Positions 18,046 through 24,000 of a stretch of 24,000 nt of DNA are shown here, piece after piece. Position 1 is the first letter of the stretch, and each line of letters begins with the position of its first letter. This DNA comes from Verrucomicrobia bacterium LW23 (GTDB lineage: Bacteria; Verrucomicrobiota; Verrucomicrobiia; Methylacidiphilales; UBA1321): NCBI GenBank assembly GCA_003054695.1, contig QAZA01000045.1:669956-693955 (forward strand). Reading direction: 5' to 3'. Both the position numbers and the translations under genes were made by a program. The notes under the pieces were generated by a model. It did not search any database. It was not told where the DNA came from and worked only from the letters and a program-made list of their open reading frames with translations.

Positions 18046-19464
18046 CTAAAACTCGTAATACACAAACGGCATGGCCTTGCCGGAGGTGGTGGCGGCGATG
18101 ATGCCGAACAGGGCGATAAAGCAGGCGGCCTGGGCGTAGTTGGGCATCTCGGCAAACCGGCGCTCAAACCACTCGGCGGAGGAGTTGGGGGCAAAGTGCA
18201 GGGCGGCGGCAAGCAGGAGGATCAGCACTACGTTGGGGTTGAGCATCGCCGTGCCCATGTGCAGCTGCGCCATCTTGGCAAACATGGCGGCGACGACTTC
18301 CAGGTTTTCGGCGCGGAAGAAGATCCAGCAGGCGCACACAAAGTGGAAGGTGAGGATGCCGCCCACCACGCGGCCGATGGTCGACTCCACCTTCTCGCGC
18401 CCGGTAAGCTGGTAGTAGATGGTGACGAGCGTCATGCCCGTGCCGTGCAGCACGCCCCAGATAACGTAGCGCCACTCCGCTCCGTGCCACAGGCCGCACA
18501 GAAACATCACGATCCACATGTTAAAGTACATGCGCAACATGCCGCACCGGTTGCCGCCCAGCGGAATGTACAGGTAGTCGCGAAACCACGTGGAGAGACT
18601 GATGTGCCAGCGTCTCCAGAACTCGCGGATATCGGCCGACTTGTAGGGGGAGTTGAAGTTCTCAGGTATGGTAAGGCCCAGCAGCAGGGCGCTGCCGATG
18701 GCGATATCGGTATAGCCGGAGAAGTCGCAGTAGATCTGGAACGCGTAGGCGTAGACGCCGATAAGCGTCTCGAACGAGCTGTAAAAGCTGTCCTTGTCAA
18801 ACGCCTGGTCGACGATATTGGCGCCCAGGTAGTCGGCAATCACCAGCTTCTTGAACAAGCCGCACAGGATAAGCCACAGGCCGCGCGAGCCCATCTCGCT
18901 GGTCAGCACCGGCGTCGCAAGCATCTGTGGCAGAAAGGTTTTGGCCCGGATAATCGGCCCCGCCACCAGGTGGGGGAAGAAGCTCACATACGCCAGGTAC
19001 TCGTGGTAACGGTTGCACGGCTCCAGATCCCGCCGGTAAAGCGAGATGATGTAGCTCATCGTCTGGAAGGTATAGAAGCTGATGCCGGGCACCATGGCGA
19101 TGCTCCAGGGAATGTCCGGCCGCGCCTCGCCCGTCCACCACGCAAAAATGTCGGCATAAGTGGCACCGGCAAAGTTGGCGTACTTAAAGAACGCGAGCAG
19201 CCCCATGTTGGTGCAGATGCTGCACAACAGCAGGGCGCGCCGCTTCCACTGCACGTCGATCCCGGCCATCTTCCGGCCAATAAAGTAGTCCAGCGAGGAG
19301 GAGAAGAAGATCAGCGGCAAAAACTGCGGCGTAGGGAAGCTGTAAAAGATGTACGACGCCACCACCAGCACCGTGCCCCGCCACGTGCGCGAGGCATGCC
19401 CCAGCCAGTAGGCAACAAAAACAATCAGCAAAAAGATGCCGTATGTGGGATCCGTAAATTGCAT
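18046..19464 (-). CDS. MBOAT-family membrane O-acyltransferase (AlgI / DltB / PatA-like)
   Basis: The 472-aa polytopic protein is collinear with P. aeruginosa AlgI, including [41 protein letters not shown] and the invariant-histidine motif [25 protein letters not shown]. Confidence 0.95.
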   Translation of the reverse strand: [472 protein letters not shown]

Positions 19465-19607
19465 GCGAGCGTTGGGGCGGGGAGGGGGAGAGAGGAGAGA
19501 TATCGCAAACGACGCGCGCCGGCGTCAGGCCCATTCGCGAGGGGGTTGGGGGGAAACGGGGTTTAATCTTCTGCAGCTGATTACCTGTCCTCTGGTTTTC
19601 AGCATCT

Positions 19608-22800: not shown

Positions 22801-24000
22801 CGCGGGCGTGTCCTTCGTTTCGCTGCTGCTGTTGCCGCCCAGCTCTACCACGCCCATGGCGGGGGTGCCGGGGCCGGACGTCGCCGCCGTTTCCGTATCG
22901 GGCGCGGCGTCGGGGCGCACTTCCACTTCTATCTTCTGCTTAAAGTCGTAAGTCTTCGGTGCTTCGGCAATGCCGGGTTCGGAGATCTGCGGGAGCATCA
23001 GCATGCTGCCCTTCGTCACCACGGCAAAGGCGGCGGCGAGGTACAGCACTTGGGCGGTTTTGCTAAACACCGGGTTGCCGGTGCTGCTGCCGCGGATAAA
23101 CTCCTCCCACGTGGGCAGGGTAAGCTGGATATTGCGGCCCTCCACGCGAACGCCGGGCGCCGCGGCCAGGGCGGCGGCGGCCAGCACTTCATCGCTCACC
23201 GAGCCCGCGGTCGGCGGGCCGGGCAGGCGGATGGAATCGGCGCGCGCGGCAACCGTGTCCGGGCGTAGCTCCTCGCCGGGGGTGCCGGAGGCGGGGCGGC
23301 CGGAGCCATCGCCCAGCAGTCCGGCACTGGCGCGGGGCATCAGCCGGGCGCGACCAGGCGAGGCAGTGGCGGCGTCGATCTTAACGCCGCAAAACATGCA
23401 AAACGCGGTCTCCAGATGATCCGGCAGCAGCGCCTCGTTGGCGCACGCGGTGCAGCGCACCTCGCGAAACCCCGGGCGGGCCGGCTCCGCGGCCTGCAGG
23501 CGGGAGAGGCCGCCGGCGTAGCCGCCGCTGTCCAGCCGCGCCATGCGCGCGGTGGGGCCGGAGGCGATGAGATTGCGCACCTGCTCCATCGTGTGCGGCG
23601 TCACCGTCTGCAACAGGTAGGAGAAGACGGAGCTGACCGGGCGCCACACCTCGTCCTGCGCCGTGCACACCAGCGTCTCCGCGGGCAGCGTGCCGGCGCG
23701 CAGCAGGGGCACCAGGTCGTCCGGCTTAAAGGGGCCCTCCACATGCACGCCGTCCAGGCAGTAGAAGAACGGGCCGCGCGGGGCGGCGGAGGCCTGGGCT
23801 GCGGCCAGTGCTTTGGCGTCGGAGGGATCGGGCAGGGAGATATCGGGGAAAACGTCGCTGACGGGCTGCCAGTCGCTGCTGCCTTCGGCGCAAAAAGTGG
23901 TGTCGGCGCCGAGCCGGCCCGTAGTCAGCAGCTTTTCAATATCGTTGCGGTCGGCGGGACCGTGGACGGTGAGCCCGTCCTGGCAGTAAAAGTAGATCAT
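19834..24000 (-). CDS. 1388-aa multidomain protein: GYF_2 x2, zinc ribbon, TM segment, Pro/Ala/Thr linker, SGNH/GDSL hydrolase-acyltransferase domain, low-complexity tail
   Basis: GYF_2-like segments are aa 1-52 (MIYFYCQDGLTVHGP...SSDWQPVSDVF) and aa 77-127 (FFYCLDGVHVEGP...DEVWRPVSSVF). A CxxC-N14-CxxC motif spans aa 183-204. A hydrophobic segment spans aa ~314-336. The SGNH blocks are HYGDS (801-805), NFGANE (1009-1014) and GDFIH (1111-1115). The ATG is the last codon position of the window (23998-24000), so the upstream context is not visible. Confidence 0.9.
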   Translation of the reverse strand: MIYFYCQDGLTVHGPADRNDIEKLLTTGRLGADTTFCAEGSSDWQPVSDVFPDISLPDPSDAKALAAAQASAAPRGPFFYCLDGVHVEGPFKPDDLVPLLRAGTLPAETLVCTAQDEVWRPVSSVFSYLLQTVTPHTMEQVRNLIASGPTARMARLDSGGYAGGLSRLQAAEPARPGFREVRCTACANEALLPDHLETAFCMFCGVKIDAATASPGRARLMPRASAGLLGDGSGRPASGTPGEELRPDTVAARADSIRLPGPPTAGSVSDEVLAAAALAAAPGVRVEGRNIQLTLPTWEEFIRGSSTGNPVFSKTAQVLYLAAAFAVVTKGSMLMLPQISEPGIAEAPKTYDFKQKIEVEVRPDAAPDTETAATSGPGTPAMGVVELGGNSSSETKDTPARGAQATTPAATAPSPAAETATTVATAPPAATSGTGTDSAPAASASGTPATASPAATASASTAPVSPATAPTPPGTGATTTTTASAPAPLPAAAAALPGATSSPATAGAPQTPSMAGSAPPTPAQPAPATPIAATATNAHAHPEAPAALPAQPVTPVATDSQPGTGAQPAMPVQPFTPPAASPAPTPAAPIAPGDPVATPAGPAAPVAGPLPTAPAPATVQEHQPIAIAHGNSTPAPAPAAPAATAPTASASSATSTAAAKTTPSDPLNQVLHGVMTDLFNGGSTGNASPEPETAPPPATASTPAAAHASPAPATTPQLARMNPTPGVNPNTLLKPEGVPLPKTEAERIAYGARALKIDLEKAAYVPTEDAIEDPTGSLNHFLDNLTRTQQGKPGAVTRVLHYGDSIVVMDFITGQMRERMHNLFGDSGAGYMLLDRPSASYQRMDLNWKSGGGWTIESIMKVKPKPGDYSLGGFAFDGAPGAFAEYTVPKKKEGDPYSLVEVHYLARPTGGKFDVLINGKKEGTIDTRADEVQARVARLRLNDGAETARINVTSGAPRLLGVVLERTRPGVVYDAAGVLGARCLRLKEIRPELLVAQLKERHPDLIVLNFGANESDDDNRSMAAIEADYSRLLALFRQALPKASILVMGALDRGERRNGKVVTKPNMPTIIMAQRAAALKNGCAFFNTFVAMGGDGTMGRWHSMRPRLVSGDFIHPTESGAAVVGDSLYRAVMKSFLLRVADRVLNPGVPIPGAPPANTPAPLTPPRTPGNATASGPAAPASTPTTTPAPAPAAVPATFATPATAPATTSAANTPATAPAPVSGPQGDGNGGAAPDNVPVSAPMPDLASIPTAPIAAAPPTAPRAERVERPEKDKDKDKDKLNNKRDRTERADRDRNDAPRPSSSPQPQQQEARRPAPAVGNGMATANRTGGSSSPATTSAPPLHTTAAAPPRASRPARAERTEQATPQRRPSSPGSTISATRESMYE

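Follow-up and report, generated by a model that had tools for sequence, protein, structure and literature searches.

Lysozyme resistance, autolysin activity and matrix properties are under the control of pairs made of an MBOAT and an SGNH protein, the mechanism of which has been worked out only recently. Here we analyse such a pair in a 24-kb stretch of DNA from Verrucomicrobia bacterium LW23, referred to as the window, where a 472-residue MBOAT is encoded next to a protein of 1388 residues that carries an SGNH domain. A described system of this kind is PatA/PatB of Neisseria gonorrhoeae and Campylobacter jejuni. PatA-type MBOATs end in the hexapeptide FxYxxF, the "acyl shuttle". PatA auto-acetylates the tyrosine of this motif from acetyl-CoA and the acetyl-tyrosine is then the donor for PatB, the membrane helix of which docks on PatA (Anderson et al. 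2025, PMC12148441). The peptidoglycan O-acetylesterase Ape1 is a soluble, periplasmic protein that is encoded after patA-patB. Shuttle-motif MBOATs with SGNH-like partners are also found in AlgI/AlgJ/AlgF/AlgX for alginate and in WssH/WssI for cellulose. AlgX unites a catalytic domain and a carbohydrate-binding module (CBM) in one partner, and anchored and soluble SGNH-like proteins cooperate in the alginate system. In DltB/DltC/DltX/DltD, which D-alanylates teichoic acid, the shuttle motif is located on the microprotein DltX. The LW23 pair belongs to the known MBOAT-SGNH class, in an uncharacterised branch with an Ape1 scaffold; what is new is a rare, lineage-specific elaboration of the cytoplasmic part and the linker.

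Both genes are encoded on the minus strand. An open reading frame (ORF) of 1388 codons (19834-24000) is followed by a spacer of 369 bp and an ORF of 472 codons (18046-19464), exactly as had been reported in an earlier analysis of the letters alone (the sequence-only reading). The GC content at the third codon positions is 0.84 and 0.86, respectively, as expected for real genes in this DNA; the window as a whole has 64% GC. The products are identical in sequence to PTX99787.1 (DB346_18390) for the large ORF and to PTX99786.1 (DB346_18385) for the MBOAT, both of which are labelled "hypothetical protein" at NCBI. The MBOAT, SGNH and GYF_2 domains named in the sequence-only reading were all recovered by profile searches, with the scores given below.

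The MBOAT (18046-19464) matched the Pfam family PF03062 with an E-value of 1.8e-31 (110.1 bits, cut-off 27) and aligned with the solved DltB structure 6BUG at 9e-33. In this alignment, H287 (18604-18606) pairs with H289 of DltB, and H327 (18484-18486), situated in LWHGAEW, pairs with the catalytic H336. The "family histidine motif" noted earlier therefore holds a conserved residue, H287, but the universally conserved catalytic histidine is H327, which is present as well. WHG and RWH were found in all of the 120 closest MBOAT homologs. The last six residues of the protein, FVYYEF (aa 467-472, 18049-18066), are directly followed by the stop codon and match FxYxxF with Tyr469 as the shuttle tyrosine. 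The same motif is the exact C-terminus of 116 of the 120 closest homologs and of 77 of the 78 complete MBOATs that adjoin this SGNH family. The LW23 protein has the MBOAT core, both histidines and the acyl-tyrosine logic in common with the Dlt system, but its shuttle motif is fused to the MBOAT itself. The best curated model was the DltB equivalog TIGR04091. Since the score of 184.6 bits lies below the cut-off of this model, 375, we do not regard the LW23 MBOAT as a DltB. No credible DltX- or ACP (acyl carrier protein)-like small ORF was found in the 369-bp spacer or downstream of the MBOAT gene. The window is also without DltA and DltC, and no ligase or microprotein gene was found near the pair.

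The SGNH catalytic domain of the large protein (aa 745-1135, 20596-21768, minus strand) matched Lipase_GDSL_2 in Pfam at 5.1e-12 (47.1 bits, cut-off 32.9). It contains HYGDS as block I (aa 801-805, 21586-21600), GVLGAR with G980 as block II (21055-21072), NFGANE as block III (aa 1009-1014, 20959-20976) and GDFIH as block V (aa 1111-1115, 20656-20670). Blocks I, III and V stand at exactly the residues quoted in the sequence-only reading. In an alignment of 37 family sequences, the residues G59/D60/S61, G267/N269 and D368/H371 (numbering of the domain query) are invariant, and these positions correspond to S805, N1013, D1112 and H1115 in the large protein. The block II glycine, G980, is kept in at least 90% of the same alignment and pairs with the block II glycine of Ape1. 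The proteins of this family are typically 450-640 residues long and are named only "GDSL-type esterase/lipase".

The domain was then modelled with AlphaFold2 (AF2). The model (pLDDT 90.1, pTM 0.91) consists of an SGNH core and an all-beta insertion between blocks I and II (aa ~839-966, 21103-21486; DSSP strands at 103-221 of the model), which is the counterpart of the Ape1 beta-sandwich. With Foldseek, the top matches by a wide margin were the Ape1 structures of N. meningitidis (4K3U) and C. jejuni (8GLD/8GKD). The alignment to 4K3U had an E-value of 7e-30 and TM-scores of 0.78/0.87 over about 375 columns, with 22% identity over the fold alignment. Sequence searches against 4K3U gave 2.2e-19 with phmmer, where the single sequence aligned end to end, and 1.4e-34 with a profile. 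Ape1 is thus the nearest solved relative, and it has the beta-sandwich at the same place and canonical blocks I, II, III and V. AlgJ, AlgX and WssI have a differently ordered catalytic arrangement and were not found in the sequence or fold searches. Judged from the model, the domain is Ape1-like and not PatB-, AlgJ- or DltD-like, and this scaffold does not decide between a transferase and an esterase.

To follow the linkage of the two genes, residues 745-1135 were used as a query. Among the scored candidates, 177 matched; in species-representative genomes the family has at least 540 loci, of which the best 80 were counted. An MBOAT gene adjoins the SGNH gene in 76 of the 80 loci; the remaining four are truncated, with the SGNH gene no more than about 1.1 kb from a contig end. 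A Methylacidiphilales species known from metagenome-assembled genomes (MAGs; two assemblies, L004 and L086) has an identically ordered pair, with a partner protein of 1241 residues and the same layout; the identity to LW23 is 81% for the SGNH domain and 75% for the MBOAT. The fusion of GYF and SGNH domains, for which the sequence-only reading had proposed a survey of MBOAT linkage, is therefore paired with an MBOAT in L004/L086 too. The next relatives of both genes are found in the FEN-1099/Lernaella group. Since the nearest relatives of each gene fall into the same lineages, first Methylacidiphilales and then FEN-1099/Lernaella, the two genes travel together. Minimal versions with only these two genes occur in three phylum-level groups (window, L004/L086, L005 and L085). 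No second SGNH gene was found beside the pair in the window, in the ortholog loci or in the Lernaella-type loci, and no glycosyltransferase, polymerase or export gene for glycan synthesis adjoins the pair in the window, L004, L084 and L085. The genes upstream of the pair in L004 are divergent and without a Pfam match. In two Lernaella-type loci of FEN-1099 (L084 1-6784 and L085 448-7314), the MBOAT-SGNH genes stand directly downstream of a gene for a protein of about 2290 residues with several radical-SAM, B12-binding and SPASM domains.

A larger arrangement was observed in most acidobacterial relatives. Here, a cluster encodes a second, Ape1-like SGNH paralog, an MBOAT with FxYxxF, the anchored SGNH protein, a PP-binding carrier protein of 80 residues and a KASIII/FabH-like enzyme. 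Conserved clusters of this type are located at 4452-11201 of L002, at 4829-11268 of L003 and in 59 of the 80 loci L004-L083; in Bryobacterales the order is MBOAT, SGNH, paralog, ACP, KAS. Judged by eye, the hydrophobic N-terminus of the second paralog resembles a signal peptide, and this paralog is nearer to Ape1 (1e-27 vs 2e-19). This suggests a layout of transferase plus esterase like that of patA-patB-ape1, and anchored and soluble SGNH-like proteins may cooperate here as in the alginate system. Like Dlt, these relatives have a gene for a carrier protein. Since the clusters hold ACP and KASIII genes, whereas the non-Dlt MBOAT-SGNH pathways are stated to be without a carrier protein (PMC12148441), they could represent an undescribed carrier-protein-fed MBOAT-SGNH system, possibly one that moves a non-acetyl acyl group. 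A linkage to lytic transglycosylase (SLT) genes was considered as a clue to peptidoglycan. It was strong only in Pyrinomonadaceae/Blastocatellia, together with unrelated VWA and TPR genes, and as a case of lineage synteny it was not counted.

Taken together, we consider it probable that the LW23 pair is a PatA/PatB-type machine that O-acylates, most likely O-acetylates, an extracytoplasmic envelope glycan. This reading is favoured because of the histidines of the MBOAT, the C-terminal FVYYEF, the full set of SGNH blocks and the linkage in 76 of the 80 loci. It agrees with the sequence-only reading, which had already proposed an MBOAT with an extracytoplasmic SGNH partner that acylates an envelope polymer, and the pair is kept in the nearest relative. 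That the SGNH partner acts as a transferase is somewhat better than an even guess. The MBOAT would take the acyl group from a cytoplasmic thioester donor, probably acetyl-CoA, and load it via His327 onto Tyr469 of FVYYEF at the outer face of the membrane. The partner would be held beside the MBOAT by its conserved signal-anchor helix. The acyl group could then pass to Ser805 of the triad Ser805/Asp1112/His1115, with Gly980 and Asn1013 as the oxyanion hole, and from there to the polymer, where the inserted beta-sandwich probably helps to bind the glycan.

Several features of the LW23 pair correspond to PatA/PatB (PMC12148441). The MBOAT has the catalytic histidine and the C-terminal FxYxxF tyrosine, and the adjacent SGNH partner has a Ser-His-Asp triad and a predicted membrane helix on its N-terminal side, from which a flexible linker leads to the catalytic domain. 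In contrast to PatA/PatB, the LW23 domain has the inserted beta-sandwich and retains the block II glycine, the SGNH gene precedes the MBOAT gene, and an ape1-type third gene is missing. The LW23 partner differs also by about 310 residues, predicted to be cytoplasmic, with two GYF_2 domains and a putative zinc ribbon, by a linker of about 380 residues and a tail of 250 residues. For the substrate, peptidoglycan is our best guess, since the only close solved relatives are Ape1 proteins and no polysaccharide-synthesis genes accompany the pair.

A number of observations weigh against this assignment. Its weak point is the partner protein, which by its modelled Ape1 fold and its canonical block II glycine looks like an esterase. 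PatB was not among the top 50 Foldseek matches, nor among the profile matches at E <= 0.1. In the transferases PatB and OatA the block II glycine is replaced (PatB-type Ser or Asn, type I turn); this was proposed to separate transferases from esterases and to favour transfer over hydrolysis, whereas Gly980 of the LW23 domain is canonical. Of the 83 family positions that are at least 90% conserved, the domain keeps 69 and departs at 14, with a cluster of losses just after block I (H829A, W838S, W840S and H843R; aa 829-843, 21469-21513). A fragment that is 82% identical (P0001) has the same losses at conserved family sites, including H829/W838/W840/H843. At these sites, the window protein is nearer to Ape1 than to its own family, and the departures may reflect a shifted substrate or donor contact. 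In addition, the predicted anchor is only moderately hydrophobic and contains a lysine, and the positive-inside bias of the window protein is weak (2 vs 1). An ACP (PP-binding) and/or KASIII-like gene directly downstream of the pair in 59 of the 80 loci makes acetyl-CoA an unsafe assumption for the family as a whole. Finally, co-transcription of the two genes is not assured because the 369-bp spacer contains a very stable hairpin.

If the large protein were a membrane-tethered Ape1-like de-O-acylase that strips acyl groups off the polymer, and the true transferase for the MBOAT were encoded elsewhere, this would readily explain why its best matches, in sequence as well as in fold, are peptidoglycan O-acetylesterases (the Ape1 proteins of N. 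meningitidis and C. jejuni). The insertion architecture is that of Ape1, and the canonical block II Gly and block III Asn are kept, unlike in PatB/OatA. We nevertheless regard this as unlikely. A pure esterase role is disfavoured because in several lineages the locus consists of the MBOAT and this protein alone, because the anchor helix is conserved like that of PatB, which docks on PatA, and unlike the soluble Ape1, and because in the two-paralog clusters the other paralog is nearer to Ape1. The window, the ortholog and the Lernaella-type loci hold no other SGNH gene beside the pair, and an MBOAT with an esterase alone would be futile.

If the partner is a transferase, the substrate could still be an exopolysaccharide, a capsule, a lipopolysaccharide or another envelope glycan, as for AlgI/J/X or WssH/I, which is possible but in our view doubtful. 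Many close MBOAT homologs are labelled AlgI or DltB by their sources, genes for a GDP-mannose dehydratase and an epimerase/reductase are found 8-10 kb from the pair, CBM-like insertions bind many glycans, and aromatic residues that hardly vary in the family are missing from the window protein, perhaps because its substrate has changed. However, the four minimal loci inspected have no gene for a glycosyltransferase, a polymerase or an export protein next to the pair, and the sugar-nucleotide genes are cut off from it by sigma factor, permease and TPR genes on both strands. The characterised exopolysaccharide acetylation genes, alg and wss, reside within the operons for synthesis of their polysaccharides, and no such operon is present at the LW23 pair. 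It is improbable that the acyl donor of the LW23 pair is, as in Dlt, an acyl carrier protein instead of acyl-CoA, with the carrier encoded elsewhere in the LW23 genome and an acyl group that may not be acetyl. The 59 loci with a downstream ACP and/or KASIII-like gene and the DltB model as the best curated match speak for it. In contrast, tblastn detected no ACP or KASIII homolog in the 24-kb window, L004/L086 have none, the Myxococcota and Lernaella-type loci are also without them, and the TIGR04091 score remains far below its cut-off. The PatA-type MBOATs, in which the shuttle motif is fused, use acetyl-CoA (PMC12148441).

The transferase reading requires that the SGNH domain reaches the outside. 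The sole hydrophobic segment upstream of the SGNH domain (aa ~316-337, 22990-23055, minus strand) starts with KTAQVL, has a Kyte-Doolittle value of 1.82 and is predicted to be a single transmembrane signal-anchor. An anchor start of the form K[PT]xx[TV][IL] was found in 51 of 119 relatives across phyla. The strict form KPAQT[ILM] was present in 19 relatives, including the top-scoring relatives inspected. The positive-inside bias of the family is modest, with a mean K+R of 2.27 vs 1.87, and amounts to 4-5 vs 1-2 in the members with a long N-terminus. We infer that the N-terminus is inside and the C-terminus outside, since no signal peptide precedes the GYF and ribbon domains, the anchor is homologous throughout the family, the family shows this charge bias and the SGNH domain must reach the extracytoplasmic acyl-tyrosine.

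The segment in front of the anchor, predicted to be cytoplasmic, contains two GYF_2 domains (aa 3-50, 23851-23994, and aa ~77-125, 23626-23772, both on the minus strand). They were found as two stretches of the Pfam family PF14237 at 1.1e-16 (60.7-66.3 bits, cut-off 25.8), the first being the best stretch. AF2 applied to the single sequence of aa 1-215, with no alignment, reached a pLDDT of 50.9 overall and 68-84 at the first GYF_2 domain; this low-confidence model was used only for the secondary-structure pattern, which is beta-beta-alpha-beta in the first domain. Further on, two cysteine pairs, CTAC (aa 183-186) and CMFC (aa 201-204), form a zinc-ribbon-like Cys4 segment with the pattern CxxC-x14-CxxC (aa ~180-210, 23371-23463, minus strand). 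Both pairs are fully conserved in the ortholog. The zinc ribbon of the sequence-only reading is therefore upheld as a pattern but not by profiles, since no significant zinc-ribbon match was obtained in Pfam or NCBIfam, S27e stayed sub-threshold at E 0.033, and AF2 confidence is low there. The order of the parts, GYF-GYF-zinc ribbon, one anchor, a long linker and SGNH, had been described correctly.

The regions around the catalytic domain are long and divergent. A disordered linker rich in Pro, Ala and Thr, predicted to be extracytoplasmic, spans about 380 residues (aa 345-724, 21829-22968, minus strand); the composition of aa 345-745 is 26% Ala, 20% Pro and 15% Thr. The distance from the anchor to the GDS motif is 464 residues in the window protein vs a family median of 82. 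Behind the SGNH domain follows a low-complexity tail of 250 residues (aa 1136-1388, 19837-20595, minus strand) with a Pro/Ala/Thr stretch, a charged KD/RD stretch and the end SATxxS[MI]YE (19837-19860). The linker is divergent in the ortholog in length and sequence. Short islands within the divergent regions are conserved in the ortholog, namely RLPGPPT, VEVRP, PSDPLN and SATxxS[MI]YE, and near the membrane EGRNIQLTLPxW...NPVFSKTAQVLYL. The terminal SATxxS[MI]YE is kept in the window protein, the MAG ortholog and the P0001 fragment despite the divergence of the tail, and could be a sorting or binding signal. Upstream of it, a (KD)n run at 20158-20187 is encoded by a 6-nt tandem repeat. RLPGPPT (aa 258-264, 23209-23229, minus strand) is invariant between the window protein and the L004 ortholog within a disordered, divergent cytoplasmic segment. 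That it serves as a ligand of the GYF domains is speculation; the canonical ligand of eukaryotic GYF domains is PPG followed by a hydrophobic residue, which RLPGPPT does not match.

Of 120 relatives, 15 have an N-terminal CxxC...CxxC followed by a disordered stretch before the anchor. The arrangement in which a ribbon and a disordered segment precede the anchor and the SGNH domain is therefore older than the window protein, a legacy of one subgroup of the family. In contrast, both GYF_2 domains, the linker of about 380 residues and the tail of 250 residues, which were seen in LW23 and one MAG species only, are additions of one Methylacidiphilales-related lineage. In an exhaustive HMMER search of aa 1-345 against 1.84 billion representatives, the only full-length match was the protein itself, and the other 79 matches cover only the GYF region (aa 3-127). 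Ten of these were scanned and are multi-GYF, RRM, WW or DnaJ-type proteins, none with an SGNH domain. Metagenome scans with the N-terminal module gave no relatives.

GYF domains of bacteria have been described as parts of membrane proteins and in the vicinity of proline-rich stretches, and they were proposed to make protein-protein contacts; their binding of proline-rich peptides is inferred (Balaji and Aravind 2007, PMC2034487). The LW23 protein fits this picture, since its two GYF_2 domains stand in tandem at what would be the cytoplasmic end, close to proline-rich sequence, but no other GYF_2 protein that we found carries an SGNH domain. The GYF domains, the linker and the tail most likely have no part in the chemistry but provide for protein-protein contact, or for positioning and reach. 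A stronger version holds that the GYF-GYF-zinc ribbon is a control or targeting device which binds a proline-rich cytoplasmic partner, or its own RLPGPPT, and so positions or switches the MBOAT-SGNH machine, with the tether of about 380 residues allowing the catalytic domain to shuttle from the acyl-tyrosine to a distant polymer. We think this quite unlikely. The sequence-only reading had suggested that acyl transfer is localised or regulated from the cytoplasm, and we found nothing in support: the ribbon-anchor-SGNH layout recurs in the 15 relatives, the GYF domains are confined to two species, and fusions of GYF domains to membrane proteins are a known theme (PMC2034487).

The start of the large ORF may lie upstream of the window (24000 and beyond; L001 328-426). 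The ATG at 24000 coincides with the window edge and NCBI calls the protein at 1420 residues, 32 codons further upstream. An in-frame GTG 10 codons upstream of 24000 is common to the ortholog, and the Arg-rich peptides encoded there are similar (VPGRRHHRVR vs VPVAGRHLRLR). Since the NCBI call is longer and the GTG is shared, the true start may be 10-32 codons outside the window, which would affect no domain.

The 369-bp spacer contains a long inverted repeat (19608-19750) with 46-nt arms that consist of 9-nt units CTTTGCGTC. Its RNA fold has a free energy of -102.6 kcal/mol (z = -12.9), and the repeat is absent from the spacer of the ortholog. Related repeats of the same 9-nt units and variants occur at 7821-7890/7961-7985, 17706-17875 and 17929-18019, all in intergenic DNA that either flanks the MBOAT gene or lies near 7.8 kb. 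They resemble a dispersed palindromic element of the REP/MITE (repetitive extragenic palindrome/miniature inverted-repeat transposable element) type, and the copy in the spacer could end or stabilise the transcript between the two genes. Matches of the hairpins to Rfam microRNA models were far below the gathering scores and were treated as chance.

The neighbouring genes in the window, for a TPR protein, a permease-Usp fusion and an ECF (extracytoplasmic function) sigma factor, are unrelated to the pair. A functional link to the GDP-fucose genes was rejected as unsupported since these unrelated genes intervene on both strands, in line with the caution of the sequence-only reading that the GDP-fucose genes may have nothing to do with the pair. 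A class I/II aminotransferase (2958-4160, minus strand) is a clear homolog (385 bits) of one that is encoded divergently beside the Pyrinomonadaceae clusters; as it lies 15 kb from the pair, its presence here is probably a coincidence. A DUF4886 protein (1177-2298, plus strand), about 16 kb from the pair, has a weak Lipase_GDSL_2 match and belongs to the SGNH clan, and no tie to the MBOAT was found.

The LW23 locus is part of a large uncharacterised branch that extends over hundreds of genomes (Acidobacteriota, Myxococcota, Lernaella-type bacteria, a few Verrucomicrobiota) and has an anchored partner built on the scaffold of the esterase Ape1 and not on that of PatB. If the partner is a transferase, the proposed block II rule that separates transferases from esterases would need revising. 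The general importance of the GYF fusion is limited because it is confined to two species. It indicates, however, that the partner can gain cytoplasmic protein-binding domains, which gives a testable handle on positioning or regulation from inside the cell. If the GYF domains do exert control, the LW23 pair would be the first of the MBOAT-SGNH systems to receive a regulatory input from the inside out, with the state of the cytoplasm governing where or when the polymer is acylated.

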